A DNA stretch of 25,880 bases from a virus (taxonomy: Duplodnaviria > Caudoviricetes), in the IMG/VR virus record IMGVR_UViG_3300030376_007868, positions 1-25,880 of that record; one strand, given 5' to 3'. Under the pieces are notes generated by a model. The model did no database searches. It was given only the letters and a program-made list of their open reading frames with translations, and was not told the origin of the DNA. A program made the position numbers and the translations under genes. Below are positions 9,200 to 25,880 of the stretch, in pieces (the first letter of the stretch is position 1; each line of letters starts with the position of its first letter).

Positions 9200-12100
9200 A
9201 TGCCGGATTTAAATCGTAAGTTTTACGCAGGTAAAATGAATAAGGATCTAGACGAAAGACTAGTTCCCAATGGAGAGTATAGAGACGCTATGAATGTTCA
9301 AGTGTCAACTTCAGATAATTCTGATGTTGGCTCTATACAAAACCTTTTGGGAAACATAGATGTTTCGTCTAATTTTTTTACAGATCCACAAGGTAGTGTT
9401 TTAAATTCTGCTCTACTAGAAACTTATGGTTTTTATTGTGTTGGTAGTGTTACTGACGATAAAAACGACAGATTATACTGGATGGTGTCTGGTCTTGGAA
9501 TAGACTTTATTGCTGAATACGATTATAAAACAAAAAAAGTATCACCTATTGTTGTTGACATATTTCAAAATAATGTATCACCAGGTGGTGACGGTAGGGT
9601 TTTACATTTTGATAAAAGCTATTTAATTACTGGTATTAATATAATAGAGGACACGTTGTTTTGGACAGATAATAATACAGAACCAAAAAGAATAAAAATA
9701 TCAGAAATTAGAATTGGTACAACTGATTTTTTAACTCACACACAGTTTTATGTACCAAATCCAAATAAAGGCCCCGCATCAACCTCAACTCCTTTTGTGT
9801 CTGCTGGTGATTTAAAGCATGAGCATATAACGGTTATTAGAAAAGGCCCGCAAAAACCTCCAACGTTAGAAATGAAAAATACAAGACGTGAGGATGTAAC
9901 AGGGTCTGGGCCAATACGAGGAGAAATAACAACAACTATAGAGCAAGCTAGTGGTCTTTCTTATCTTTTTGATGTTGCTACAGGAACGTTTATAAATCCT
10001 CCTGGAGGTGTATCTATCACGTTTGACACGGCTCCAGATTTTATTGAAGGAGATAAATTAGTTATAGAATCTAAAAAACCGGGTACTAATGTTTTGAAAA
10101 AAACAAAAATTATTGTTGAGGTAGTAGGTGCTATTTCTTACTCCGCACCTCCCAACTCACAGTTAACATGTAATGTAAAAGTACTTAGTATGGATAAAAA
10201 TATAGATTTATCTAATACTTCTTATTACGTTTCTTTACTTCAAGATACCCCATTGTTTGAATTTGTTTTTCCTAGGTTTGGATGTAGATACAAATACAAA
10301 GATGGCGAGTACTCTGCTTTTTCACCGTTTTCAGAAGTAGCGTTTTTACCTGGGCGATATGATTATCTACCTAAAGAAGGTTATAATTTAGCAATGGTGA
10401 ATACAGTGAGAGCACTTGGGGTTTGCAACTTTGTAGACGCTCGTTCTATACCTAAAGACGTTGTTTCTATTGATATACTTTATAAGGAGTCTAACTCTCC
10501 AAATGTGTACTCTATAAAAACCGTAGATAAAGTTGCTATAGAAGAAGGTGTTTACGATTCTTGGAACGCTATTTCACCAACAGAAATGAGAGACCCAAAC
10601 TTAATTGCAAAACAATTAACATATGGTTATTTAGACGTAGAAGCAGAAATGATTCACTCTATACTTCCTTCAAATCAACTTTTAAGAGGTTGGGATAATG
10701 TACCTAGAAAAGCACTTGCACAAGAAGTTATTGGTAATAGACTTGTTTATGCAAATTATTTACAAAATTACAATGTTTTCTCATCTGCACTACAAAGACC
10801 ATCCGCTCTTTACAACGACATTAATTATCAAGACGCTGTATTAAGGCCTTCTAAAAATATAGAAGTAGACGTAAAACTTAGTTATGATTCCACCCTTGAT
10901 GTAGGAACTATTATACCTGAACAACTCGATGCTGGTAAAGCGTATACTTATAAGTCTGCAAAAACAATAAAATCTCTTAGAACGTATCAAGTTGGAGTTG
11001 TTTACATTGATGAGTTTGGAAGAGAAACACCTGTATTTTCAGATCAAAAAAGTAATAAAAACACAACGTATGTACCAAAAGAAAGCGCACATAAACAAAC
11101 AAAATTAAACGCTCAAATTTTTAGTTCCACACCTGACTTTGCAAAAAACTTTAAATTTTTAATTAAAGAAACTTCAAGCGAGTATTATAACTTAGCTATG
11201 GACAGGTGGTACTTTGCTGACGATGGTAACATTTGGGTTTCTTTTCCTTCTTCTGATAGAAGTAAGGTAGATATAGAAACATTTTTAATATTAAAAAAAG
11301 CTCACGAATCTTCCGAGGTAATAACAGATTTAGCAAGATATAAAATACTAGATATTGATAATGAGGCTCCTAAATTTATAAAAACCAAAAGAACTGCTGT
11401 AAGAACTGTAAATAGTGGTTTTGTAGATGTTGCAAACAATATACCTATTATAATGCCGAATGGTACATCTGATGGTAATTTCCCTTATATAGACGGAACT
11501 TTTATACAGATACATGATGATGTTTTTGGTCCTCAAGTAAGATTATGGGATGCTGAAACTGAAGCAACTGAAAAACAATTTAGATTAGTCTCTCCTGAAG
11601 GTGCTAGTGATTGGTATGATGTTAAGAGTTGGGAAAATCCTAATTTTCAATCTGGCTCTACTACAGCTTCAACCGCTACTATTGGAGTTGGTGGATATTG
11701 GAATATAAAATCTTCAAGAAAATTTGGAGTTGATATGTCCATAACAACACCTTTTGCGGCGCCTATTTCAACAGTTGAAAAAGCTTACGCCAACATTAAA
11801 GTTGAGTTTATTAAAAAAGAAGAGAAAAATTTACCAGAATTTGAAGGTAGATTTTTTGTTAAAATATTAAAAGATGCGCAATTACAACAGTATATCATAG
11901 GTTATGCTGACACATCTACTACGTACACATCTATTAATCAAATAGTTTGCCAATACATAAACCCTATGGACCCAGAGGTTCAAGCAGGTGGTGAATTAGA
12001 TGATGGTACTCAGTTTTACAACTGCGAAAAAGATAAAATATCTATAGACAATAGTAATACAACTACGGGTCTACATCCATTAATAGGAAATGGCCACGGT

Positions 12101-15100
12101 CATTATTTTTGGCAAAGCGCTGGTGACACGGAGCATACAACGAGCGAATCTAGCGGTTGGTTTATAGACAAAATAGAAGCCTTTAGGCCGTTTGCTTATA
12201 ATGCTTATTATTTTGATAGATCTGATGAACACTCGAAAATAAGTCTTTTCAATAGCCCAGTTCTTAGTGTCCCAGCAGGTAAAAGAGCACCGTATCAAGA
12301 GCCAACTCTTTTTGATTTTAGTACCATGGGTTCACCATGGGAAGCTGGTTGGGACGATGGTCATGGTACTACTTGGAACGCTCCAAATAGAGCGTTGGGA
12401 ATAAAAGCACAGCTTTATGGTGCGGGACAAACTGATAGATCTTGGAGCGATGGATGGTTTGAGCCTCTCACACCTCCAGCTTGGGGGGTAGGTTTTCCAA
12501 CTGGAAATAATTTTGGATTGGCTTGGGATACACCAGGTCCACCAGCAACAAGTGTGCCGGGTTATGTAACTCCTTATAATTATATAGAAATGACTGATCG
12601 TGCTGGTGATAAAGCAAAACAACTTCAATTAATTGGTGATTGTACTAATTATCGCAACGGTCAAGGTGCGCCGCATAAAGGATATTTAGGTCACGATGAT
12701 ATTGCAACACCAGTTAGATACATTAGCGCAACTGGAGAGTGGCACCCTGTGCTTGAGTTTGCTAAAGAACCAGCATCGGGTAGTAGAAATCAAAACGGTA
12801 GAATATTACCAGCTGTTGGCGTTGATCAAGTTAATAATATTATAACTCTTTCTTACGCTGGTATAGGTAATTCAAAAAACTATACAGATAAACATTGGAA
12901 TGGTTTTGAAAATACTGACGGATCAGAAACTCTTAAATCGTATTTTACGCACACTGCCTGGGGTGGTACATATGTGTCACACCAAACTTTTATAGATTCT
13001 ATTACCACTCCTGGAACAATATGGAGATGGAAACAAGATCCTAGTCAAGTTGTATATCAAACACAACAGTTAGATGCGGCTAGTGGACATGGTTCTAACT
13101 CTAGCGTTAGCCAAAACACATGGAATTACAACGAGGTTGATTATGCTGACTGGAACTCTTCAACGGCAAAAGGTGTTGAGCTTTTTAATTATACTAAAAT
13201 ACAAGATTATCTTACTTATCATTTTTTAGAAATACAAAGAATGTCTACGAGCACAGCACATTGTTACGCACCAAGAGCTAATTGGGCAACTCAAGCTATA
13301 GGTAATTATTCCACTCCAGAGAGCACTGGGATAGGAAGTAATTTATGTATACCGATGTCGCAGTCTTTTTATTCTTATTCTGCAGAAAAGTCATTCTTTC
13401 CTAGATTTAACTCAACTGACGACGCTGTGCCTGCTCAAGGTATCACTGCTGAAGATCGTAGAAGTAGAAGGTGGCCTATGTTTACCTCAGACTGGGACTC
13501 AGCATCAAATAGAAGAAGACGTTATACAATACATGCGAAACCTTTACCTTATCAATTTACTGGTACAGCATATGAAACAGACGGTACTGAAAAAATTGGA
13601 GATATAGGTCCACATTTTTATTCCCCAACAAACAACTCGGCTCTTGATCCGCATTTTGATCATAATGGAGATGTTCTTACTACGATACCAGCTACAAAAG
13701 CGCCTGGTATACGCCCAGATGGTATGTACACAGGCCGTCCTCATTTAACCGACCAATCACTTGGTATTACAACGATTCCAGGTTTAAAAACTTTAAATAC
13801 AGATACAAATAAAGTAGGTCGAGCACCTGGAAGTGTTATTTGGCAAATACTAGATAATTATGTTGAAGACGGGGCTAGCGAAGGTTATTTTAGTCAAAAC
13901 CCTGGTGTTTGGGAAACAGAACCTAAAGAAAAATTAGGATTAGAAATATATCACGAGGTAGGACAGATATACCCAACAGAGTTAAATGAAACAAATTTAG
14001 AGCAATTTTTTGGACCTATTTATCAAGGAGATCCTACTGTTGATCCATCTTACTTAATTAAAAACAGTAAAGTAACTTGTTTTCAACCACCACCTGTTAC
14101 TTTAACACCTACCGGTAGTCCAAAAGCTTTAAGTACCAATGCTGGTAATGGAGATCAAGATTTTGATATTAGAGTGCAACGGGTGGTTTGGAATGGTGAC
14201 AAGGCATATGTTTGGCTTATGGATGTTAACGGTAACGCGTTAACAAGTATAGGTGGTACAGTTGCCCCAGCAAAAGACGAAACTTTAATATTCACTAGAG
14301 CAGACGGAAGTAAAACTCAAGTAAATGTAAAAAGTGTAGTGTCAACATTTGTACAGATTTATGAAGTGCATCTTGATACTCATAACTACGAAGTAACATT
14401 GCCTTTTTTCAACGCTTATTCATTTGGAAATGGTGTTGAATCAGACCGTATTAGAGATGATTTTAATCAAGTTACTATAGATAATGGACCAAAAGTTTCT
14501 GCAGTTCTTGAAGAACCATATTTAGAAGAAAATAGATCAAGCGGTTTAATATATTCTGGTATATACAACTCAATGAGTGGTGTCAATAATCTTAATCAAT
14601 TTATTCAAGCAGAAAAAATAACAAAAGATTTAAACCCAAGTTATGGTAGTATACAAAAATTATTTGCTAGAAATACAGACCTAGTTACATTTTGTGAAGA
14701 TAAAGTATTTAAAATACTAGCCAATAAAGATGCCTTGTTTAACGCTGATGGAAATGCCAACTTAACAGCAACAGAAAACGTATTAGGACAAACGGTTCCT
14801 TTTGTTGGGGATTATGGTATATCTAAAAATCCAGAATCATTTGCGGCAGATGCTTTTAGATTATATTTCACAGATAGAACAAGAGGTAATGTTTTAAGAT
14901 TATCACAAGATGGTATTACTTCAATATCTGATTACGGTATGAAGGACTGGTTTAATGATAATTTAACAGGCGCCAGTAGAGTTATAGGTAGTTTTGACGA
15001 TAAAAAAAGTGAGTATAATATAAGTTTAGATTATTACAACTACGAGAGCTATGAAGTTGGAATTATAGGAAATCCTAATATTGGACCCGCTATTCCAGGC

Positions 15101-18100
15101 ACAACCACGCCATTGACTTATGTAGTAACTAACGAGTTAGCAGTTTCTTACGAGGTTGCTAACAATATGGAAGTAGATGATACTATATTTGGAAATGGAA
15201 TACCAGTTGGAACAACAGTTGTTTCTAAACAAAACTTAGGTGGAGGACAGTGGAAGATTTATATGAGCGCACCTGGTGACAATACTGTTTTAGGTTCTTA
15301 TGTTTCATACGGTGTTCAGCAAGCTGGAGTTCCTGGTCCTGTTATATGGAAAACTAAAGTTTACAGTTCTAAAGACGATCTACAAGCATACACACTATCT
15401 TACTCAGATTCTGTTAGAGGTTGGCCTAGTTTTAAATCTTTTTATTATGAAAATGGTTTAAGTTTAAACAATGATTATTTTACTATTAAAGGAGGTCAAC
15501 TATATCAACACCATGCCAACGATTCGCACAACACTTTTTACGATGAGTTTGCAGAGTCTAGCGTTGAGGTTTTATTTAACGAACAATCTGGCTCAGTTAA
15601 AAGCTTTCAAACTCTTGATTACGAAGGTACACAGTCTAAAGTTACATCTGATGGTGGTTTAAATGAAACAAGCAACTCTGCGGAATACTGGGATAATTAC
15701 GATAAATTAGGTTGGTATGTTGATAACATGTTTACAGATTTACAAGAAGCAGAGCCTGCTGAATTTAAAAACAAAGAGGGTAAATGGTTTTCTACAGTAA
15801 AAGGAGTTGCTACAGAGTGGTTAGATGATGGGGCTGCTGGAAATATAGATACTAAAGAATTTTCATATCAAGGTATAGATGAAGCAAGTGAGATTACAGT
15901 TCTTGATGAAGATGGTGGTTATACTTCTTGGGATTGTCAACCTATCAATGGTGGTTATCTTGGTTCTTGTTGTGTTGACAGCAATGGTAATCCACTGCCG
16001 GTTTATCCAACTATTTTACAAAGCAATCCACCTGTTGTTCCAAACACTCTTATTGCACCTGCTAGTCCTTTAGCTTATCAAATTATGAGTCTTTTATTTG
16101 ATAATCCTACTATTTTAGTTAATAACACTGTTTTTGAGTACGATGATGGTACAGCTGGCTCTATTTGGTGCTCTGCTTTTGGTGGTGGCGCATTAATAGA
16201 TGGCAGTGTATATCCTAACTCTCAACTACAACCTTTTGTAGACATACACTCAAACCCTGGTCCACTTACGGGTGGAACTCAATATGTCGATAATATTACT
16301 CTTCAACCAGCCGCTCCAGGACAAGTAGATTCTTATACTGCAAATCCAGATTATGCAAACACTACTGACCACCGCGTAGTTTACACTAATATAAACTATT
16401 TAGTTCAGTGGTGTTCTACATACTTAGATTCAAATGTATTTTATTTGGGCATGAGTTTTCACGATTGGTACAACGCTATGGCCGGAAGCTCTCATGGAGG
16501 ATCTTTACCTGGTCAATTTGTTTATGCTGGTGTTTACGCAAACGTAACAAATCCTTGTGCTAGCGGTGGTGCTGTACAACCAGGATCTTTTAACTGTATT
16601 GAAGTACAGGGCTTAAGCGGTGCTTATCCTAACGAAGCTGCATGTTTGGCAGACCCTGATTCTGAGTGTAATCCAGATTGCCAAACTGACAACGATGTTA
16701 CAGTGCACACTGTAGACGCTTTTGTATCTTCTTGTATTAACGGTAGGGTTTCTGTGGAGGTTTATTTAGCTGGTAATGCTACTAGTTGGTCTGTAGAATA
16801 TTTTTACTCTGCAAATGACGCACCTGTATATTATCTTGTAGATAATAATAGTTATACTCATAATGGTTTTTCTAATGATTTAATGGGTGCTCAAGGTAGT
16901 TACTACGCTATAGTTACCGATGACTTAGGCTGTACAGTGAAAAAATACTTTACAATAGGATGTAATCCTGTTGCACAACCTTGTTCTCCAACAAATCCAC
17001 ACTCTTTTAATGGTCCTTTAATACAAAATCCTCAAGATCTCAATAATACAGGTTGTTGGGAGACTGGTGATCCAAATGTAAGTACAGAAAGTGGTAGCAT
17101 TACGTTTATAAATACTTCTCTAGTATCTCCAGCAACATCTTGGGGATATGAACTTTATGTAGTTATAAATGGAAACGCCACTATAATTGCTAGTGATACT
17201 GGTTTGCTAGCTGGTGGACCAAACGAAAAAATTGACGGTCTTGAAAATGGAGATTACGTATACCGAATAACTGACGATAATTGTGAATACGAGTATGTTC
17301 CATTTACATTAGACTGTACTGATGCTGCTGCTCCGTGTGATCCACCAGTACTTGGTCAATCAAGCACAAGTACAACAATGAGTACTAGTAATGATAATTG
17401 TGTAACAGATAACAGCGATGGTAAACACGAACTTTTAAATGTTTTATCTGCTCCTACAGGCTCATATTATACCGCGTACTACCGTTATGACAATACACAA
17501 TACTCATCTTGGCCGGGTTTTGCTAATGCAACAATAATGGGCACAGTTCAAGGACCTTTCACATCTACAGCACCAATTGGCGCAAATCCTAATATTGTAA
17601 GTCGTTCTGGTTTATCAGACTCTATTTTAAGTGGTAATAACTATGTGATTGTAGTTTCAAACGATATAGATTTTGAATGTGCAAGTGTAAATGAGTTTAC
17701 AATTAACTGTGATGATACTGAACCTGTTGACCCTTGTGTAGGTGAGAATAATGTGAGTTTAGGCCCTAAAGTTACAGGTGCTATTATAAACGCGACTAGT
17801 TATGATTGTGATGCAGCTAGTCCAATTTACGTATCTTACGGCTCTCATACTCTTACTACTGTGCAAACACAACCTGCAGCACAAGGATTTACAGTTGAAT
17901 ATTTTTCTCCAGCAGGCTTTAATATAACAGCCCAAGCTGGTGGTGTTCAAAGTTTTAGCGCTGGAGCAACGATGGTGCAAGCAAACGGTCATGATTTCTT
18001 AATGCCCGGCGGTCCTTACACTTGTGTTATAACAGACAATTTAGGCTGCTCTACAACAATAACGTTTGTGGTAAAGTGCGAACAAATAGTAGGTGTAGAT

Positions 18101-18940
18101 CCTACTTATGATTGTAATAATGGCTGTAACCCAAGCACGCTACCAATTTCAACAGCAGCGCCATTTACTATTTTTAGTAGTTATGCTGCTTGTATAGCTA
18201 GTGATTGTTATACGTCTCAAGTGTGCACAGGACAACCCTGGGTTGGTTGTTGCGATTATGTGCAAAATACTGGTCAAGGATACCCTCCTTCACCAAGTGT
18301 TGGAGATAGTGGTCCAAATATAGATCCTGTAACTGGAGTTGGCAAATCTTGCTATGAAGATCCTTGTTGCGATTGTTGTGGGGAAAATAATTTGGGAGCC
18401 ACTGCAAGCGGTTTGTATCCTATACCACATCCATCAAACCAAAATTATTTACATCAATCTTGTCAAGGCGCACATTGGGACTTTCCTAATAACACTGGAC
18501 CTATTTGTGTAGAACCTAACTTGAGTTGCTTTACTAAAAATGATTCAGTTGAAATGTTTGATGGTGCATTAAAACCTATAAGTGAGATTAAAATTGGTGA
18601 TGAAGTAAAATCTATTAAAAATGGTAAAACTACAAAAGGTATTGTAACAGAATCGTTAGTACATCCATTTAACAATACAACTGAAGTTGTAAAAATAAAC
18701 GGTATAACTGCAGAACCTTATCACCCTGTCTACATAGATGGTAAATGGATACCTATTAAAGAATTAGGCGAAACAACTTATCAATTTATTGATAGTTGGT
18801 ACAACTTAGAAATAGATGGTAATATTGATGATAGTGAACATAATTATATTATTGGCGGTATAATTGCCTCTGGACTAGGTGATAACGAAAAACTTAACAA
18901 CAAGTACAAACGTCAACCCAAACAAATATTTAACTTGTAA
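9200..18940 (+). CDS. Giant tail stabilisation/nozzle protein (P22 gp10 / crAss muzzle-like) with a Cys-rich, SprB-like C-terminal extension and a terminal Hint domain (3246 aa)
   Basis: Family-type motifs GKMNKDLDERLVPNGEYRDAMN, LFWTDNNTEPKRI, VPRKALAQEVIGNRLVYANY, FGNGVESDRIRDDFN, GDYGISKNPESFA, FKNKEGKWF. After KEFSYQGID (~15880) come about 1000 aa of Cys-rich repeats. Hint domain starts at Cys3110 (18527). Confidence 0.8.
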   Translation: MPDLNRKFYAGKMNKDLDERLVPNGEYRDAMNVQVSTSDNSDVGSIQNLLGNIDVSSNFFTDPQGSVLNSALLETYGFYCVGSVTDDKNDRLYWMVSGLGIDFIAEYDYKTKKVSPIVVDIFQNNVSPGGDGRVLHFDKSYLITGINIIEDTLFWTDNNTEPKRIKISEIRIGTTDFLTHTQFYVPNPNKGPASTSTPFVSAGDLKHEHITVIRKGPQKPPTLEMKNTRREDVTGSGPIRGEITTTIEQASGLSYLFDVATGTFINPPGGVSITFDTAPDFIEGDKLVIESKKPGTNVLKKTKIIVEVVGAISYSAPPNSQLTCNVKVLSMDKNIDLSNTSYYVSLLQDTPLFEFVFPRFGCRYKYKDGEYSAFSPFSEVAFLPGRYDYLPKEGYNLAMVNTVRALGVCNFVDARSIPKDVVSIDILYKESNSPNVYSIKTVDKVAIEEGVYDSWNAISPTEMRDPNLIAKQLTYGYLDVEAEMIHSILPSNQLLRGWDNVPRKALAQEVIGNRLVYANYLQNYNVFSSALQRPSALYNDINYQDAVLRPSKNIEVDVKLSYDSTLDVGTIIPEQLDAGKAYTYKSAKTIKSLRTYQVGVVYIDEFGRETPVFSDQKSNKNTTYVPKESAHKQTKLNAQIFSSTPDFAKNFKFLIKETSSEYYNLAMDRWYFADDGNIWVSFPSSDRSKVDIETFLILKKAHESSEVITDLARYKILDIDNEAPKFIKTKRTAVRTVNSGFVDVANNIPIIMPNGTSDGNFPYIDGTFIQIHDDVFGPQVRLWDAETEATEKQFRLVSPEGASDWYDVKSWENPNFQSGSTTASTATIGVGGYWNIKSSRKFGVDMSITTPFAAPISTVEKAYANIKVEFIKKEEKNLPEFEGRFFVKILKDAQLQQYIIGYADTSTTYTSINQIVCQYINPMDPEVQAGGELDDGTQFYNCEKDKISIDNSNTTTGLHPLIGNGHGHYFWQSAGDTEHTTSESSGWFIDKIEAFRPFAYNAYYFDRSDEHSKISLFNSPVLSVPAGKRAPYQEPTLFDFSTMGSPWEAGWDDGHGTTWNAPNRALGIKAQLYGAGQTDRSWSDGWFEPLTPPAWGVGFPTGNNFGLAWDTPGPPATSVPGYVTPYNYIEMTDRAGDKAKQLQLIGDCTNYRNGQGAPHKGYLGHDDIATPVRYISATGEWHPVLEFAKEPASGSRNQNGRILPAVGVDQVNNIITLSYAGIGNSKNYTDKHWNGFENTDGSETLKSYFTHTAWGGTYVSHQTFIDSITTPGTIWRWKQDPSQVVYQTQQLDAASGHGSNSSVSQNTWNYNEVDYADWNSSTAKGVELFNYTKIQDYLTYHFLEIQRMSTSTAHCYAPRANWATQAIGNYSTPESTGIGSNLCIPMSQSFYSYSAEKSFFPRFNSTDDAVPAQGITAEDRRSRRWPMFTSDWDSASNRRRRYTIHAKPLPYQFTGTAYETDGTEKIGDIGPHFYSPTNNSALDPHFDHNGDVLTTIPATKAPGIRPDGMYTGRPHLTDQSLGITTIPGLKTLNTDTNKVGRAPGSVIWQILDNYVEDGASEGYFSQNPGVWETEPKEKLGLEIYHEVGQIYPTELNETNLEQFFGPIYQGDPTVDPSYLIKNSKVTCFQPPPVTLTPTGSPKALSTNAGNGDQDFDIRVQRVVWNGDKAYVWLMDVNGNALTSIGGTVAPAKDETLIFTRADGSKTQVNVKSVVSTFVQIYEVHLDTHNYEVTLPFFNAYSFGNGVESDRIRDDFNQVTIDNGPKVSAVLEEPYLEENRSSGLIYSGIYNSMSGVNNLNQFIQAEKITKDLNPSYGSIQKLFARNTDLVTFCEDKVFKILANKDALFNADGNANLTATENVLGQTVPFVGDYGISKNPESFAADAFRLYFTDRTRGNVLRLSQDGITSISDYGMKDWFNDNLTGASRVIGSFDDKKSEYNISLDYYNYESYEVGIIGNPNIGPAIPGTTTPLTYVVTNELAVSYEVANNMEVDDTIFGNGIPVGTTVVSKQNLGGGQWKIYMSAPGDNTVLGSYVSYGVQQAGVPGPVIWKTKVYSSKDDLQAYTLSYSDSVRGWPSFKSFYYENGLSLNNDYFTIKGGQLYQHHANDSHNTFYDEFAESSVEVLFNEQSGSVKSFQTLDYEGTQSKVTSDGGLNETSNSAEYWDNYDKLGWYVDNMFTDLQEAEPAEFKNKEGKWFSTVKGVATEWLDDGAAGNIDTKEFSYQGIDEASEITVLDEDGGYTSWDCQPINGGYLGSCCVDSNGNPLPVYPTILQSNPPVVPNTLIAPASPLAYQIMSLLFDNPTILVNNTVFEYDDGTAGSIWCSAFGGGALIDGSVYPNSQLQPFVDIHSNPGPLTGGTQYVDNITLQPAAPGQVDSYTANPDYANTTDHRVVYTNINYLVQWCSTYLDSNVFYLGMSFHDWYNAMAGSSHGGSLPGQFVYAGVYANVTNPCASGGAVQPGSFNCIEVQGLSGAYPNEAACLADPDSECNPDCQTDNDVTVHTVDAFVSSCINGRVSVEVYLAGNATSWSVEYFYSANDAPVYYLVDNNSYTHNGFSNDLMGAQGSYYAIVTDDLGCTVKKYFTIGCNPVAQPCSPTNPHSFNGPLIQNPQDLNNTGCWETGDPNVSTESGSITFINTSLVSPATSWGYELYVVINGNATIIASDTGLLAGGPNEKIDGLENGDYVYRITDDNCEYEYVPFTLDCTDAAAPCDPPVLGQSSTSTTMSTSNDNCVTDNSDGKHELLNVLSAPTGSYYTAYYRYDNTQYSSWPGFANATIMGTVQGPFTSTAPIGANPNIVSRSGLSDSILSGNNYVIVVSNDIDFECASVNEFTINCDDTEPVDPCVGENNVSLGPKVTGAIINATSYDCDAASPIYVSYGSHTLTTVQTQPAAQGFTVEYFSPAGFNITAQAGGVQSFSAGATMVQANGHDFLMPGGPYTCVITDNLGCSTTITFVVKCEQIVGVDPTYDCNNGCNPSTLPISTAAPFTIFSSYAACIASDCYTSQVCTGQPWVGCCDYVQNTGQGYPPSPSVGDSGPNIDPVTGVGKSCYEDPCCDCCGENNLGATASGLYPIPHPSNQNYLHQSCQGAHWDFPNNTGPICVEPNLSCFTKNDSVEMFDGALKPISEIKIGDEVKSIKNGKTTKGIVTESLVHPFNNTTEVVKINGITAEPYHPVYIDGKWIPIKELGETTYQFIDSWYNLEIDGNIDDSEHNYIIGGIIASGLGDNEKLNNKYKRQPKQIFNL
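16679..18079 (+). repeat. Four degenerate SprB-like / Ig-like protein repeats (about 95-125 aa each)
   Basis: Repeat ends: GSYYAIVTDDLGCTVKKYFTIGC, GDYVYRITDDNCEYEYVPFTLDC, NNYVIVVSNDIDFECASVNEFTINC, GPYTCVITDNLGCSTTITFVVKC. These match the G-x-Y-x-V-x-V-T-D-x-x-G-C end of SprB repeats. Confidence 0.7.
18527..18940 (+). other. C-terminal Hint (hedgehog/intein-like) autoprocessing domain, non-splicing type
   Basis: Block A CFTKNDSVEMFDGALKPISEIKIGDEV, block B AEPYHPVY, block F WYNLEI...HNYIIGG. Ends IASGLG rather than the His-Asn splice junction. Confidence 0.85.
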
Positions 18941-18943
18941 TAA

Positions 18944-20443
18944 ATGGAAAAAAAAATAAATTATATTGAAGTTGAAAACGCGATACAACACATCAAATCT
19001 ATTGGTGAAACTCGTAAAATTAAAGTTAAAGGCACAAGCGGAGCTGGTTTTTCAATAGAGGTAAATGATGGTAGCGGTGCTTGCATTTTAGAAGAACCGT
19101 TACAAAACATAGAAATACCAGAAACAGGCGTGTATATATTAACTCAAGAATTTCCAGACATTACAACAGGTGCTAATGGAGGTTTAACAGAGGAGTACTA
19201 TGACATAGTTTTAAGACCACACGCGGATGTTGAGGCTAGTATACAAGCGCAAAGATTATATCAATATCCAGATGTTACAATGACACTAACAACAAAGTCA
19301 TCAGCGACTTCACCATCCATAACTGTTAGAGATGATGATGGTGTGTTTAGCAGTATGACAGCGACAATGCCGGCTAAATCAAAAAATAGGGTTAATAAAA
19401 CTTTAAATTTAACAATTAACGAAGCTAGTGGCACGGCTGGGTTTTTTTACATAAAAGACACTTTTAACAATTCGCTTTCTAAAAATACCACCTTTACGAG
19501 AAAAGTCACAACAAGTGACAAGCCCAAACTAGGAAGTATTGTCACGTTAAAACCTCTTACCACAAAAACAATAGGCTCTACAACGTCTGGAGATTTAACT
19601 AGAGGAAACGAAAATGATTTAATGAGCAATGATATTGAGGTTGGTATGAGGGTGTATAGCAAATTAACAAAAAGTAAAATTGTATACGAAAGCTTAGAAG
19701 TTCCAACATGTAAAAGAGCTACAAATAAATTCGCATTAAGCGACACTGTTGGTTTGTTTCCCGGTATGATAGGTAAAATTAAAGGCCTGCAAGACTTTAC
19801 ATTAATTTCTGTTGATTGTGAAAAAAATATAACAGTAAGTAAAAAAATAATTATACCTGAAAACACAGATGTTGATTTTGTTTATGAAATTACATCTTCA
19901 GTAGGTAAAGTGCTTGAACAAGTAGACAAAGAAGGTAATGCTTGCGTTACTTTAAGTAATGAAATAATGATAGTAAACGATATGGTACTTGATTTAGATG
20001 CCGATAAGTCTCAATTTTTTTCTGATTTTGTTTTTAGTGGTAGCGGTACCGACGTTGTTACCTTAAAAGGAAACGTTGAGTTTTCAAAACCTGGATTAAA
20101 AGATGTTACTCATACTATAGATATAGATAATATGGTAACTAGAATACCTAACATTCGTGATTTTAAAGTAGATGTTCCAAAAAATAGTAGTAGATACACA
20201 ATAAACACTCTTAAAGGTGAAATTGATCAAAATGCTTCGGCTACAATTAGCGAAGATACGGTTGCAAGTGGAAAAGTTGTAGCTGTAACAAGAGAACCAA
20301 GTAATGGTTCGACAGCAATAAGCGCTAGAGACTTGTATTATACTCCTAATCCAGATTTTGTTGGTAGCGATGAAATATTGTACACTCTTAACGATGGTAC
20401 AAACACTAGCTTAGAAGGTAAAATTAGTATAACTGTAAAATAA
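18944..20443 (+). CDS. Virion-associated beta-rich protein with C-terminal Ig/cadherin-like domain (499 aa)
   Basis: C-terminus EPSNGSTAISARDLYYTPNPDFVGSDEILYTLNDG...ISITVK has the YTPxxxFxGxDxxxYxxxDG signature of bacterial Ig-like (Big_9/cadherin-like) domains. Confidence 0.7.
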   Translation: MEKKINYIEVENAIQHIKSIGETRKIKVKGTSGAGFSIEVNDGSGACILEEPLQNIEIPETGVYILTQEFPDITTGANGGLTEEYYDIVLRPHADVEASIQAQRLYQYPDVTMTLTTKSSATSPSITVRDDDGVFSSMTATMPAKSKNRVNKTLNLTINEASGTAGFFYIKDTFNNSLSKNTTFTRKVTTSDKPKLGSIVTLKPLTTKTIGSTTSGDLTRGNENDLMSNDIEVGMRVYSKLTKSKIVYESLEVPTCKRATNKFALSDTVGLFPGMIGKIKGLQDFTLISVDCEKNITVSKKIIIPENTDVDFVYEITSSVGKVLEQVDKEGNACVTLSNEIMIVNDMVLDLDADKSQFFSDFVFSGSGTDVVTLKGNVEFSKPGLKDVTHTIDIDNMVTRIPNIRDFKVDVPKNSSRYTINTLKGEIDQNASATISEDTVASGKVVAVTREPSNGSTAISARDLYYTPNPDFVGSDEILYTLNDGTNTSLEGKISITVK

Positions 20444-21352: not shown

Positions 21353-21772
21353 ATGCACAGTGAATTAACTTTTAGGAGTTTTAAAGATAAAGATTACAAT
21401 ACGGTAAATAGTTGGTGGGATTATTGGTGGACAGAAGGAGATGGAATAGAAAGAAAGTTTTTACCACGCAACAAATCTTGCTTTATAATAGAAAAAGGTG
21501 ATATACCTATAGCTGCTGCTTTTTTATTTATAGATAAATATTCACCTATGGCTTATTTAACCTACATGGTATCTAATCCAAAATACAGAGAGAAAGATAG
21601 AAGAAGTATTATAGAGCAATTAATAGCAAACATAGAAAAAGAAGCAAAATCACAAGGAGTAGAATTTATATTTACTGTTTGTGGTAATATACACTTAGAA
21701 AATATACATGGAAAACTAGGTTGGACAATTGATAAATCCGCTCCAGCTTATGAAACTTTTAAATATATATAA
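21353..21772 (+). CDS. GNAT-fold acyltransferase-like protein (139 aa), at the T7 gp13-like position
   Basis: GNAT-like order: CFIIEKGDIPIAAAFLF, YLTYMVSNPKYR, helix EQLIANIEKEAKSQG, FIFT, KLGW. Lies between tail and ejection genes. Confidence 0.72.
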   Translation: MHSELTFRSFKDKDYNTVNSWWDYWWTEGDGIERKFLPRNKSCFIIEKGDIPIAAAFLFIDKYSPMAYLTYMVSNPKYREKDRRSIIEQLIANIEKEAKSQGVEFIFTVCGNIHLENIHGKLGWTIDKSAPAYETFKYI

Positions 21773-21773
21773 T

Positions 21774-22709
21774 ATGGGAGGAAAAAAAAGAAGAGCAATA
21801 GCTAAAGAAGCTAAAGACGCGGCTAACGCGTCATTATTAGACGCGGAAGATAGAAGAGCTGTCGCTCAAGCTGGTGTTGACAAACAAAGAGCTGCGTATG
21901 AAAGTTTTGAATTTACAAATCCTTATGCCAACATGCAAAATCAATATGCGGGCATGGAAAACACTTATGAAGACCTAACTGTTAACCAACAGCAGGCTCA
22001 ATTTCAAGCGCAACAAGGGCAACAGCAAAGAGCAAACATAATGCAGCAAATGCAAGGCGCTGCTGGAGGATCTGGTATAGCTGCGCTAGCTCAAACACTA
22101 GCTAATCAAGGCCAATTACAAACACAGCAAATATCAGCATCTATAGGACAGCAAGAGGCGATGAATCAAAAACTAAGAGCTCAAGGTGCTGCTCAAATAC
22201 AACAACAAGAAAGAATGGGAGCCGCCGCTGTAGATTTACAACAAAGACAAGGCGAAGCAATGGTACAGCAAGCAGAAAGCGGAAGAATATCAACTTTATT
22301 GGGTATGGAATATGGTGCTTTAACAGGTGCAGAAGCAGGTGTACAACAAGGCTTTGCTAACCAACAAAGCGCTATTGGTATGGATGCTCAAATGTATGCT
22401 GCAAATCAACAAATGAAAGGTCAAATAATAGGTAGTGCTATAGGAGCAGCAGGAAATGTAATGGCTGCAAACATGAAAGTGCCAGCAGTGCCACCTTCCG
22501 ACAGAAGGTTAAAGAAAAATATAAATAAAATTGGTGAATCACATAGTGGGTTGAATATATATAGTTTTGAATATAAAAACCCTAAACATGGAGAAGGATT
22601 ATTTCAAGGTGTAATGTCTGATGAAATACCACAAGAGGCAGTTGTAAGTAAAGGTGGTTATGATCATGTAGATTATAGTATGCTAGACGTAGAATTTAAA
22701 CAAATATAA
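21774..22709 (+). CDS. Ejection/internal virion protein with C-terminal S74-type autocleaving chaperone domain (311 aa)
   Basis: Start moved to ATG 21774 (MGGKKRR), 1 nt after the GNAT stop. Q/A/G-rich helical body with glycine-zipper-like IIGSAIGAAG. C-terminal SDRRLKKNI...IYSFEYK...GVMSDEI...VDYSML begins at Ser242 (22497). Confidence 0.75.
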   Translation: MGGKKRRAIAKEAKDAANASLLDAEDRRAVAQAGVDKQRAAYESFEFTNPYANMQNQYAGMENTYEDLTVNQQQAQFQAQQGQQQRANIMQQMQGAAGGSGIAALAQTLANQGQLQTQQISASIGQQEAMNQKLRAQGAAQIQQQERMGAAAVDLQQRQGEAMVQQAESGRISTLLGMEYGALTGAEAGVQQGFANQQSAIGMDAQMYAANQQMKGQIIGSAIGAAGNVMAANMKVPAVPPSDRRLKKNINKIGESHSGLNIYSFEYKNPKHGEGLFQGVMSDEIPQEAVVSKGGYDHVDYSMLDVEFKQI

Positions 22710-22711
22710 AT

Positions 22712-24607
22712 ATGGCAAAAGGAGTAGGTAGTTTATCAGGTAGAGCAGATGCAACATTAGTAGGCGCGGCAACAAGAGCGTCGCTAGCTGCTGTACCAAA
22801 AGATCTTAGTGGTGTTCACCAAAGGACAGCTGCTGCATATGCATCTATGGCACAAACCACAGGTGCTGTATATGGTAAAGCTCTTGAGGTTATTGGTCAA
22901 ATTGGTGGCCAGCTAATAGAAAACGCAAAAATAAAAAAACTTGAGCCAGAAAGCGAGTGGAGTGATAACCAGATGAAAGATTTTGAAACAAAACCACCAC
23001 CACCACCAAAACCAGCTGATATTAAAGCACCCGAAACTGATTCTCCTATTGTTGAAGTTGACGAAGACTCTGCAAGCGGTGAAGAATATACTGTATTCTT
23101 ACCTGGTGAAGTTGAAATAGGTGCTGCTCCTGAAAAACCAAATTATGTTTACACTTACGCAGACAATGATGGCAACGAGGAGCCTATAACTGTTCAAACT
23201 ACAGCTCAAAAACTAGAAGGCTTAAGAGAAGAATTAAAAAATGTTAAAAACCTAGGTTTAGATAGAAAAGGTAGAAAAGCAGAAAAAAACAGAATAAGAA
23301 ATGTTATGGATAGGATAAGGCAAGAAAATGTTACTTTTGGCGCTTTTCAAGAAACTATGACAACTATGCTTGCGCAAGATCAAGTTAATTTTGAAGCCTC
23401 GGGTATATACGGCATGAGTAAAATGCTTTTTAGTCGAGCGTTGTTAGCTGGTGGTAAACCGGTAAAAGAAACAGATCCAAACTTAGCCGCTTACAACGGT
23501 GCTAGAGCTATCCAGGGTTACGACAAAAATGGTAGAATGGTATTTACTTATGTAGATAAGTACGGTGTACCTTTTAAAAACGAAGATGGTAGCGATATGA
23601 CTATAGATAAATCAGCAATTGCATCTGGTGATTTGTTTATTGCAAAATCAGAAAAAAGACCTATTATAGATGGTTTAATAAATACACAGTTTATACAACA
23701 AAATTATAAAGCCGGTTTTCAAGATTTTGAAAACTTAATAAATAAAGGTGTAGATGAAAACATAACTGATAAAAATACTTTTCTTGATATAGCTCATTAC
23801 CATAGCTCAAATACTACCGGTTCTTTAGCAAGTGTATTAAACAACGTTGAGTATGATGGTGATGGAGTACCACAAATTAAAGAAACAGAAATGTCTGGAC
23901 TACTTGTTGGTGCTTTACAAGGGCTTGGTAACAAAAATCAATTTGACGTTAGTGGAGATGGTGTGTTTGACGAAAAAGATTACGCAACACAAGAAAACTA
24001 TGCCATGCTTGTTAAAAAAGTATTATCTGGAGATGATCTTCAACTTGGAAAATCGTTATTAAAGGCTCATTATAAAAACGCTACCAATGCTCAAATTGAA
24101 AAATTTAAAAGTTTAGAACCAGCTCCAGTAACAGACGCGCTTACTGTTGATCAAAAAAGATATTACGACGTAATTAACGCACGAAATAGAACAGCGTTAG
24201 ATAACGCAAAATTTTTATCACAACAAAAAGTAAAAGAAGAAGAAAAAGTAGACACGCAGAATACTGTTTATAGTATTGAGTCTGAATTTAGTGCTGGGCA
24301 ATCAACTATTGGTAAAGGAAGTAGATACGTGCAAAAAACCGAATCAACTCCAGAAACAGTTGTTGATGGTGAAACAATCCCCGCACAAGAAGCAGGTTGG
24401 ACATTTTATAAAGATGGTAAAGTAGTTAAAACTATGCTAACTAGCGAGGCAGACATACTAGATGAAATAACTAAGCATGTAACCGATACGTCTGGAAAGT
24501 ATGAAAGTTTTACAATTGGAGAAACAAAAGTAGTTAAAACCGGTACACCTGTTAGAAACACTACTTATGAGTACAAAGGTAATGGCAAGTGGGAGCTTAA
24601 AAATTAA
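22712..24607 (+). CDS. Putative second ejection/internal virion protein (631 aa)
   Basis: Lies between ejection-type genes. A/G-rich N-terminus, KPPPPPKP linker, EF-hand-like loop DVSGDGVFDEKD. Confidence 0.55.
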   Translation: MAKGVGSLSGRADATLVGAATRASLAAVPKDLSGVHQRTAAAYASMAQTTGAVYGKALEVIGQIGGQLIENAKIKKLEPESEWSDNQMKDFETKPPPPPKPADIKAPETDSPIVEVDEDSASGEEYTVFLPGEVEIGAAPEKPNYVYTYADNDGNEEPITVQTTAQKLEGLREELKNVKNLGLDRKGRKAEKNRIRNVMDRIRQENVTFGAFQETMTTMLAQDQVNFEASGIYGMSKMLFSRALLAGGKPVKETDPNLAAYNGARAIQGYDKNGRMVFTYVDKYGVPFKNEDGSDMTIDKSAIASGDLFIAKSEKRPIIDGLINTQFIQQNYKAGFQDFENLINKGVDENITDKNTFLDIAHYHSSNTTGSLASVLNNVEYDGDGVPQIKETEMSGLLVGALQGLGNKNQFDVSGDGVFDEKDYATQENYAMLVKKVLSGDDLQLGKSLLKAHYKNATNAQIEKFKSLEPAPVTDALTVDQKRYYDVINARNRTALDNAKFLSQQKVKEEEKVDTQNTVYSIESEFSAGQSTIGKGSRYVQKTESTPETVVDGETIPAQEAGWTFYKDGKVVKTMLTSEADILDEITKHVTDTSGKYESFTIGETKVVKTGTPVRNTTYEYKGNGKWELKN

Positions 24608-24610
24608 TAT

Positions 24611-25880
24611 ATGGCTAATAAAACAATTACAACAGAAGAATTATTTTCTTTAGATAATATTGAAACTACTACACCAGTAGAAAATGATAATCTTATTTCA
24701 ACTGAAGATCTTTTTAAACTGGGAAAAGTAACGAGCTCGACGATAGATCCGACGACGGCGAGCGATACGGAATTAGAGTCGGACGATGGTTCTTCGGAAT
24801 TACCAGATAACAGGGGTTGGTTTGAGCAAGCAATGGACGCTGGTGCTGTTAATGCAGATTTATATGATAATGCTGACGCCATATTTGATATTAACAACAC
24901 AGATGAGGCTAGAAATTTAAGTAACTCTGAACTGCAAGCTTATATTGATTTAGTTATTAAATCTAAAACAGCTAGCTCAGAAATGGAAGAGCTAAACAAG
25001 TTTACAACAGCTTTTGAAAAATATAATAAAAAAGGTGAAAACTGGTTAACTTCTACTATTATGGCTGTCAAAGAAAATGGAGGTGTAACTGGTGGTGGTA
25101 TGAAAGGTTTTGCACAAGCCTCTATACAAAGTTATAGATCAATGCTTCCGCAATCTTTTGATGTAGAAGGTTTAAAATCTTACGAGTTAGGTAAAGAAGT
25201 CGCGGTACCAACTTTAGGTGCTGCTGGTGCTGGTAGCGTCTTGCCCGTTGTTGGTACTTTAACAGCTGGAACAACCGCACTTTTTACTTCTTTAAATTAT
25301 GGTCTAGAAACTATAAATACTTTTAACACGTTATTAGAAGAAGAAATAGCTAATAATCCAGAAAAATACAAAGATGGTTTTACGCCAGAATCAATAAGAA
25401 TGGTTATGGCAGACGACGAGGCTAGAACTAGAATAAAAAAACAAGCAAGAGCAAGGGGCAGGACAATAGCAACTGTAGAAGGTGTTACCAATGTTATAGG
25501 TATAAAGGGTTCTGGAGCTATACTAAAAGCAGGTAAAAACGTTACAAGCACAGCTGGTAAGGCGGGTGTTAAAACAGCAGCTGGTACTGTAGCCGCTGGT
25601 ACTGAAATAATTGGTGGTGGTACCGGTGAGTACTTAGGTGAAAAAGTTATTGGTAGAGATGCTTCTGGCGTGGAAATAGTTTTAGAAGGTTTATCTATGG
25701 CTGCTATAAAAGCGCCTATAGATGTAACTGTTGCTAGTATTGAATTAGCTAAGAATAAGCCTAACTACCAGATTGACGGAGCTAAGGTTTCAAAACAAGC
25801 AGTTGAAGATTATGTTAACGGGGCGGAAACAGCAGAAGAAATAGCTAATCTAAACGTAAAAATAGATAATGATGATGCTT
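24611..25880 (+). CDS. Large ejection/internal virion protein, N-terminal 423 aa (3' truncated; absent from ORF track)
   Basis: Translated by hand from ATG 24611 (MANKTITTEELFSLD...) to the window end with no stop. G/A/T-rich hydrophobic segments (TLGAAGAGSVLPVVGTLTAG, KTAAGTVAAGTEIIGGGTGE) are typical of membrane-interacting ejection proteins. Confidence 0.78.
   Translation, partial: MANKTITTEELFSLDNIETTTPVENDNLISTEDLFKLGKVTSSTIDPTTASDTELESDDGSSELPDNRGWFEQAMDAGAVNADLYDNADAIFDINNTDEARNLSNSELQAYIDLVIKSKTASSEMEELNKFTTAFEKYNKKGENWLTSTIMAVKENGGVTGGGMKGFAQASIQSYRSMLPQSFDVEGLKSYELGKEVAVPTLGAAGAGSVLPVVGTLTAGTTALFTSLNYGLETINTFNTLLEEEIANNPEKYKDGFTPESIRMVMADDEARTRIKKQARARGRTIATVEGVTNVIGIKGSGAILKAGKNVTSTAGKAGVKTAAGTVAAGTEIIGGGTGEYLGEKVIGRDASGVEIVLEGLSMAAIKAPIDVTVASIELAKNKPNYQIDGAKVSKQAVEDYVNGAETAEEIANLNVKIDNDDA
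24721..24810 (+). promoter_or_regulatory. Candidate -1 programmed ribosomal frameshift cassette (slippery site, pseudoknot, 27-codon transframe ORF)
   Basis: In-frame G_GGA_AAA (24721-24727), 7-nt spacer, stem1 24735-42/24756-63, stem2 24748-53/24778-83. The -1 frame reads SNELDDRSDDGERYGIRVGRWFFGITR and stops at TAA 24808-10. Confidence 0.7.

Follow-up and report, generated by a model that had tools for sequence, protein, structure and literature searches.

A probable programmed −1 frameshift hidden near the start of a giant phage virion gene

The giant gene and its surroundings

The window described here is the whole 25,880-nt stretch of marine phage DNA that was analysed, and all coordinates are counted from its first letter. 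Its gene order corresponds to a podovirus-type morphogenesis module, in which terminase, portal, capsid-like and tail genes are followed by the gene for a 3246-aa protein, two mid-sized genes and finally a giant gene, which starts with ATG and whose reading frame stays open up to the window end (Table 1). By portal and capsid, the nearest phages are MW202828, Maribacter phage Panino, the Flavobacterium elemo phages, Cellulophaga phi38:1 and phi40:1, and Calle; the phi18:3 group comes next. Calle and Gundel are podoviral (PMC8776804). The 3246-aa tail or muzzle protein (9200-18940) shows a crAss muzzle C-terminal match (E 3.9e-6), ends in a Hint (Vint) domain (E 2.4e-11) and is possibly self-cleaving. 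The gene at 21729-22709 yields a weak Peptidase_S74 match under the cut-off (E 4e-4), and its true start is probably the first ATG past the upstream gene, not TTG 21729.

The giant gene matches phrog_32588 (E 8.7e-17), and a Pfam search with it gave no match. Longer homologues of its product span 858-2077 aa, and relatives can exceed 2000 aa. By eye, we noted what we take to be an HExxH motif in three of the longer homologues (P0001, P0002 and P0003) and a DxDxT motif in P0002 and P0003; Pfam found nothing in these three proteins. The final genes of phi18:3 and phi40:1, which match the giant gene in position, are annotated as structural by MS/MS, and a pairwise comparison of the window's giant protein with the giant genes of the cultured phages gave no significant match. 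The sequence-only reading, a first inspection of this DNA, had spoken of an ejection gene; that name is based on position, size and the PHROG match. Because the link to the cultured-phage counterparts consists of position and the PHROG match, we infer the name "ejection protein". As in podovirus ejection (internal core) loci, a very large virion protein gene lies last in the module, behind two mid-sized core genes. The gene is thus regarded as coding for a putative ejection (internal core) protein, its packaging into the head and its ejection being deduced from position and size.

Close to the start of the giant gene, a slippery heptamer is followed by a spacer, a potential pseudoknot and a −1 frame that is closed just upstream of the slip site. 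The predicted transframe product comprises 66 aa, and its last 15 residues include four Arg and four aromatic residues and no acidic one. What the sequence-only reading had stated about heptamer, spacer, stem arms, −1 stops, the 27-codon open frame devoid of starts and the product length holds in every point. Its observation that NCG codons are enriched was equally accurate: 10 of the 17 NCG codons in the giant gene fall inside the 27-codon −1 stretch, and at most 4 occur in any 27-codon stretch of the window's other 14 genes. The same stretch forms the top CpG peak of the window (12 per 90 nt; runner-up 8). The 15 genes of the window contain 72 in-phase X_XXY_YYZ heptamers, and two others precede −1 frames of 31-32 codons. 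Within the window alone, a heptamer with an open frame is therefore not beyond chance, and the case rests on conservation.

Table 1. Features of the giant gene and its frameshift cassette (window coordinates).
Feature	Position	Strand	Remarks
Giant gene, last in virion module, 0 frame	24611..25880	+	Runs off the contig end
Variable N-terminal module, common to both predicted products	24611..24720	+	Relatives have unrelated modules ahead of this cassette (8 clusters)
TAA ending the −1 frame right before the slip site	24715..24717	+	
Slippery heptamer G_GGA_AAA, in phase	24721..24727	+	Giant-gene codons 37-39 = CTG GGA AAA
Hidden −1 frame, 27 codons plus TAA (24808-10)	24727..24810	+	No ATG, GTG or TTG
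Spacer from heptamer to stem 1, GTAACGA here	24728..24734	+	6-7 nt; fixed length, variable sequence in relatives
Pseudoknot stem 1	24735..24763	+	Arms 24735-42 / 24756-63; loop carries the stem-2 5' strand; duplex -9.5 kcal/mol
Family-type stem 2, degenerate here	24746..24774	+	GAUCCG 24746-51 with CGGAAUU 24768-74; duplex -4.3 kcal/mol
Stem 2 of the sequence-only reading (TCCGAC/GTCGGA)	24748..24783	+	24748-53 with 24778-83; six Watson-Crick pairs; -8.1 kcal/mol
Conserved tail motif RYG-h-x-h-G-x-WF-h-G, −1 frame	24763..24798	+	

Read by eye, the N-terminal module of the giant gene contains the short motif I-[TS]-TE-[ED]-LF twice, and a tandem duplication of a short unit is likewise seen in many unrelated N-terminal modules (the window, L035, L163, L164, L165 and L167). 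In independent assemblies, the cassette is identical in contigs of runs X3, X4 and X8, of which X4 is possibly the window's own source, and a contig of run X17 carries it with the variant heptamer G_GGA_AAG. In related contigs, identity turns to divergence or is interrupted by a 178-nt insertion at 24794-24815, exactly at the 3' end of the cassette, consistent with a recombination hinge. A minus-strand ORF of 98 codons (24604-24900) overlaps the cassette and is probably a shadow of the GC-rich stretch. Elsewhere in the window, an A9 run occurs in the first codons of a 499-aa gene (18948-18956) and eight A in a row (A8) lie close to the beginning of a 326-aa gene (21782-21789); no hidden tail lies behind either, since both −1 frames close within 5 codons.

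Conservation of the slip site, the RNA structure and the hidden frame

Among three close homologues of the giant gene, two carry the cassette despite unrelated N-termini, and the third is entirely without it. Further relatives were gathered with a pattern of the mid-structure only, from which the heptamer and the 3' part were excluded, and comprise 19 viral and at least 120 metagenome loci. Including the window, the search gave at least 140 matches, at least 121 of them distinct. Of the distinct matches listed, 82 are flanked by AT-rich sequence, and the other 39 are chance hits of GC-rich character. An in-phase G_G(G/A)A_AA(A/G) heptamer at constant distance to the stem is present, among the matches listed, in 82/82 distinct AT-rich relatives and in 0/39 chance hits, and the conservation of the slip site that had been proposed as a check was thus found. 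The heptamer reads G_GGA_AAA in 51 of the listed relatives, G_GAA_AAG in 20 and G_GGA_AAG in 11. Its first G is invariant as the third base of 13 different codons among these matches, and G-ending codons make up 9.5% in 11 window genes. The G_GAA form, which is the poorer one at the P site, is followed by AAG in 20 of the 20 listed cases and never by AAA, a pairing that fits the known shift-prone nature of A_AAG (PMC5009743).

Within 27 codons, a stop interrupts the −1 frame in 1/79 and the +1 frame in 78/79 of the listed matches, 3 of the 82 being too short to count. The tail motif is missing in 3 of the 82 listed loci, namely two at contig ends and the decayed copy L118, in which heptamer and stems are intact, a 3' deletion has occurred and the −1 frame stops; this locus looks like a decaying copy. 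The 82 loci share kinship, and all these counts are thus taken from related loci. Additional G_GGA_AAG cassettes (L179, L197, L198, L203, L217, L222, L374 and others) differ in the linkers between slip site and tail, which are often Cys-rich, and this variety suggests several independent stimulator structures ahead of one tail.

The RNA structure was analysed in the 77 of the 82 listed cassettes that have canonical length; three were too short and two are deletion variants, including that of the window. In all 77 listed cassettes, stem 1 and a stem 2 of the type GAYCC/GGRUC form an H-type pseudoknot 6 nt past the heptamer. In the 78-row alignment of the matches listed, pairing holds in 99.8% of 1011 cells, with double-sided changes at three pairs, and stem 1 by itself is 99.8% paired with two double-sided pairs. 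None of 500 shuffles reaches the observed level, and slid controls attain 17-48%. The variable pair of the family stem 2 is U-A in 39, C-G in 31, U-G in 7 and C-A in 0 of the 77 listed cassettes. On a tree, pairing is kept in 18/19 and 11/11 state changes at the two main pairs, mostly via G-U; as the tree was built from the cassette itself, this evidence is supportive, not independent, and recombination inflates the state-change counts. RNAalifold recovers stem 1 without guidance and also proposes a competing 3' hairpin that has no double-sided changes. Stem covariation, a further check put forward at the outset, is hence a property of the family pseudoknot.

The pseudoknot of the sequence-only reading had the same topology and a stem 2 made of TCCGAC/GTCGGA. 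Its six perfect pairs are present in the window, but the stem 2 that covaries in the family is GAYCC/GGRUC. Across the family, the pairs of the former stem hold in 75% of the cells among the matches listed: its inner four pairs persist, and its outer two are broken in 43 and 70 of the 78 listed rows. The window and locus L162 are shorter by whole codons (3 nt in the window), have lost the family GGG and both carry UCGGA. In the window variant, TCCGAC/GTCGGA is a more stable duplex than the family-type stem 2, and it is probably used in the 3-nt-shorter variant only. When 24728-24815 is folded as a nested minimum-free-energy structure, it does not outperform shuffles (z 0.85); this is uninformative, because single-sequence folding cannot model pseudoknots. 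Rfam returned three matches for 24400-25100 with E-values of 3.3-4; none of them lies in the cassette, and their scores fall far short of the gathering score.

Selection on the two overlapping frames was estimated as omega from parsimony counts at positions outside the search pattern. Among the matches listed, the −1 frame gives 0.43-0.57 (p 1e-5 to 3e-8) and the 0 frame 0.94-1.28, which is not significant; within the tail motif the values are 0.43 and 1.04, respectively. The −1 frame keeps Tyr, Gly, Trp, Phe and Gly fixed in the listed matches, whereas the 0 frame swaps Ser/Leu, Met/Thr and Glu/Val/Ala/Gly. Purifying selection across the cassette acts on the −1 frame, not on the frame of the giant protein, and the expectation that the −1 motif should be conserved better than the 0-frame linker was borne out by omega in both frames. 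Since the −1 frame is constant while the 0 frame flips, WFFG is ruled out as a by-product of a Ser/Gly linker. A search of the ESM Atlas with a 30-aa peptide gave no usable hit, and when cassette and tail were compared by blastn and tblastn with the annotated phage collection, there were no hits; the cultured relatives were found by portal and capsid.

A probable second route to the same tail, and a modular cassette

A search with the tail peptide retrieved 58 viral loci, 52 of them distinct, in which the tail is preceded by a G-type heptamer (34), by a run of at least nine A (16) or by neither (2). In these tail-selected loci, the tail frame has a Met of its own in 0/52, and the body frame is open one base on in 52/52. 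A pattern requiring only A8 ahead of the tail motif gave at least 120 loci, at least 104 of them distinct. Among the matches listed, the run is 9-11 A long in 103/104 distinct loci, and in 102/104 the N-terminal ORF and the body share one frame; one of the other two is truncated and one has A8. The final Gly of the motif, which lies outside the A-run pattern, is invariant in 89/89 distinct listed motifs and uses all four third bases, and the 0-frame residue opposite to it varies between E, V, A, D and G in the matches listed. In the minimal A10 form, a Lys/Arg run stands directly ahead of the tail motif. A scan of genome contigs returned two loci, one an A10 arrangement on a phage-like contig in a MAG and the other an unrelated GC-rich chance match.

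The A-run arrangement extends to cultured phages. All 10 complete relatives inspected, which represent about five independent lineages and include nine cultured Flavobacteriia phages, possess an A9-A11 run (at record position 67515 in phi40:1) after an N-terminal module of 33-66 residues, and in 5/5 stretches of 20-46 kb from complete relatives the sole A/T run of at least nine sits at this site. Behind the run, a basic-aromatic frame follows, with WFFG in four Pachyviridae and twice in Panino, where WF-h-G stands in tandem in the tail frame (L164:28600-28760). The match to the tail motif is loose in cultured relatives, Callevirus, elemo and MW202828 being weaker than the WFFG of Pachyviridae and Panino.

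Polymerase slippage needs a run of nine A/T to be efficient (PMC5009743). At least nine A are found at the frame change in 103/104 of the A-run loci listed and in 10/10 complete relatives, and as A9-A11 reaches this threshold, polymerase slippage is probable in those relatives. Judged by sequence, A-run relatives would thus probably access the tail by slippage of RNA polymerase, the alternative being ribosomal slippage on A_AAA_AAA. At the window's own site, G3A4, the run of nine A/T at the frame change is absent. Given that the tail motif stands behind either a heptamer or an A-run, one hidden product seems to be reachable by two recoding routes.

As deposited, phi18:3 (L167:20310-26440), phi13:2 (L168), phi19:3 (L169) and phi46:3 (L170), as well as Panino (L164:28700-28900), have an A9 run. 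Their N-terminal ORF does not share the frame of the giant ORF, and the annotation treats the latter as a gene of its own that begins at a TTG or GTG further downstream. One gene may have been split by a homopolymer miscall, or these are real variants that need slippage for the full-length protein. The former is more likely, because 102/104 of the metagenomic A-run loci listed are in frame, and on the same ground obligatory slippage for the giant protein is disfavoured. This suggests that several deposited genomes wrongly split the giant gene at the A-run.

The cassette links 8 N-terminal clusters to 8 body clusters, of which 19 combinations occur; the products predicted from these measure 61-102 aa. 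It is present in 3/8 loci selected by one body protein and missing in 5/8. In six relatives that lack the cassette, two of them in records at least 90% complete, the tail match occurs nowhere else in the records, and positive controls were found in 4/4 cases. The predicted short protein would be dispensable in some lineages. The sequence-only reading had suggested that the shift could fix a stoichiometry; the cassette is missing in one of three close homologues and in five of eight body-selected loci, and being optional, it is no universal stoichiometry device. A profile search of 1.84 billion proteins gave nine hits, of which seven are ORFs of 59-112 aa that combine N-terminal module and tail in one frame, and two (P0005 and P0008) were discarded as spurious repeats. 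Genes that are pre-shifted in nature, recombination or indels introduced during assembly could account for the in-frame proteins; for one of them (P0010), the nearest relative among viruses has the ordinary hidden layout. Pfam and PHROG scans of N-terminal modules and short products assigned no family, save for one weak PHROG match.

Mechanism, possible roles and related recoding systems

A conserved heptamer, a covarying 3' structure and an open, start-less frame under selection, the features by which programmed −1 frameshifts are recognized, occur together in this cassette. The ensemble very likely acts as a programmed −1 frameshift that would yield a 66-aa protein beside the giant virion protein, and with high confidence the predicted event itself is pseudoknot-stimulated −1 slippage at Gly-Lys. 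The pseudoknot would pause ribosomes with the Gly and Lys tRNAs on GGA AAA, and the paused tRNAs would re-pair one base back on the heptamer. Shifted ribosomes would translate 27 further codons and terminate at the −1 stop, such that the short protein would be made in fixed proportion to the giant one. Bypassing of the T4 gene 60 type is ruled out, since a 0-frame stop across the site is found in 0/79 of the matches listed.

What the short protein does is a more tentative matter. The largest single option, which analogy favours though it falls short of being probable, is that the product assists the giant protein as an accessory partner in assembly or loading. The shared N-terminal module would direct it to the site that the giant protein takes while the head is assembled. 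Through its basic-aromatic tail, which likely forms a beta-hairpin, it would attach to a conserved partner, in analogy to lambda gpG/gpGT.

Two unlikely readings accept the frameshift as genuine and assign it another purpose. The shift might throttle synthesis of the giant protein, the tail being a C-terminal degradation tag or another disposal signal. The cassette is indeed optional and follows unrelated N-terminal modules, and the tail resembles many protease tags in its C-terminal position and its hydrophobic and basic character. A stop immediately after the shift would throttle as well, however, as in Thermus dnaX (PMC5009743), and the invariant spacing of Y, G, G, W, F and G together with a free extension of 3-20 residues looks more like a folded binding motif. 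Equally doubtful is the reading as a virion or lysis peptide that is active on membranes or binds DNA through its Arg/aromatic tail, apart from assembly. The composition of the final 15 residues and the Lys/Arg run right ahead of the motif in the minimal A10 form speak for such an activity; against it, the tail lacks the length for a membrane span and carries too much charge, and its strict conservation, while N-terminal modules vary freely, points to a protein partner over lipid.

It is highly improbable that no recoding occurs and that the cassette is a conserved DNA or RNA element, such as a recombination hinge or an RNA signal, in a Ser/Gly-rich linker. The many module-body combinations, with breakpoints concentrated at the 3' end of the cassette, would suit a hinge, and xGSSE codons read one base back do give WFFG. 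Yet the substitutions, synonymous when read in the −1 frame, alter the 0 frame radically (S/L, M/T, E/V/A/G), the rare codon TCG (24/588 Ser codons in 11 window genes) is retained, and the same motif stands behind two unrelated slip signals, always in the phase that reaches it. Least probable of all is access to the window's −1 frame through slippage during transcription or from an internal start: a homopolymer route is open to the family, as seen in the A-run class, and ATT codons are present in the tail frame, but G3A4 is far short of the run of nine A/T (PMC5009743), the fixed spacing to a covarying pseudoknot is a ribosomal signature, and none of the 52 tail frames has its own Met.

Programmed frameshifting with pseudoknot stimulation, as preferred here, has several known counterparts. 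The closest in design is E. coli copA, where a pseudoknot also stimulates a truncating −1 shift early in a long gene and CopA(Z) of about 70 aa arises beside the 834-aa product (PMC5009743, PMC6182138). The present case differs in being a phage virion gene with the heptamer G_G(G/A)A_AAR, a selected added tail of 27 residues and N-terminal modules that are unrelated among relatives, and in having no copper-binding function; a P-type ATPase with an N-terminal metal-binding domain is not indicated, the giant gene being without a Pfam match. Like dnaX, which makes tau and gamma, the family produces a long and, as predicted, a short product, and relatives reach the latter via a ribosomal or a polymerase route: E. 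coli dnaX shifts ribosomes at A_AAA_AAG and Thermus thermophilus uses transcriptional slippage on nine A/T (PMC5009743), which the heptamer-plus-pseudoknot and A9-A11 classes parallel. In dnaX, the shift is followed at once by the end of gamma, and either shifted frame runs into a stop, whereas here a conserved peptide is found in the −1 frame only, the short product measures less than 5% of its long counterpart and the presence of the cassette is optional.

Lambda gpG/gpGT likewise stems from a phage morphogenesis gene with a −1 shift at a G_GGA_AAG-type site, which is the type of lambda's own shift site, and gives products with a common N-terminus in a fixed ratio. The pair couples the tape measure to tail assembly. 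Sites of this type are counted as shift-prone and are used in the g-t genes of haloviruses. In lambda and other long-tailed phages, the shift lengthens a small chaperone encoded upstream of the tape-measure gene, whereas here it would truncate the giant last virion gene of short-tailed phages; the giant-gene site has no pair of small genes placed between the major tail gene and the tape-measure gene and no lengthening shift, and no sequence relation to G/GT was found. T7/T3 gene 10 and the Ig-domain frameshifts of capsid and tail genes also obtain two virion products from one structural gene via a −1 shift, but they add a C-terminal extension close to the gene's 3' end, and the present site is codon 39 in a gene that exceeds 850 codons. 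IS3-family elements and IS1222 (NNA_AAG) share single-slippage A_AAG variants with a 3' structure, here G_GAA_AAG in 20/82 of the matches listed; they fuse two ORFs into a transposase, whereas no transposase or mobile element is found here. The giant-gene cassette thus belongs to none of the copA, dnaX and G/GT gene families.

The sequence-only reading knew of no such frameshift in ejection genes, and we likewise found no description of it, or of the motif strings, in the largely open-access literature searched by listings and abstracts. The word "frameshift" is absent from the available text of the paper on Calle and Gundel (PMC8776804).

As a broader and still less secure proposal, a large group of Bacteroidota podoviruses from the sea and fresh water (uncultured ones, Pachyviridae, Pervagoviridae and Elemovirus) may hide an unannotated virion or assembly protein in the giant core gene. 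Recoding would append a portable RYG-h-x-h-G-x-WF-h-G docking tag to any N-terminal module, and lineages would have changed between frameshifting by the ribosome and slippage of the polymerase. Among phages, the conserved frameshifts known so far mainly concern tail chaperones and capsid or tail extensions. If the proposal is true, a truncating shift in a giant core gene, combined with a selected tail and a pair of interchangeable recoding routes, would constitute a new class and reveal a hidden protein in abundant marine phages, as well as the first recoding-controlled component of podovirus core loading. For the loading of giant proteins in set numbers into the heads of short-tailed phages, the cassette would offer a concrete, mutable signal. 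Since phi38:1, phi40:1, phi18:3, Calle, Panino and elemo carry the A-run version, a direct test is possible in cultured phages.
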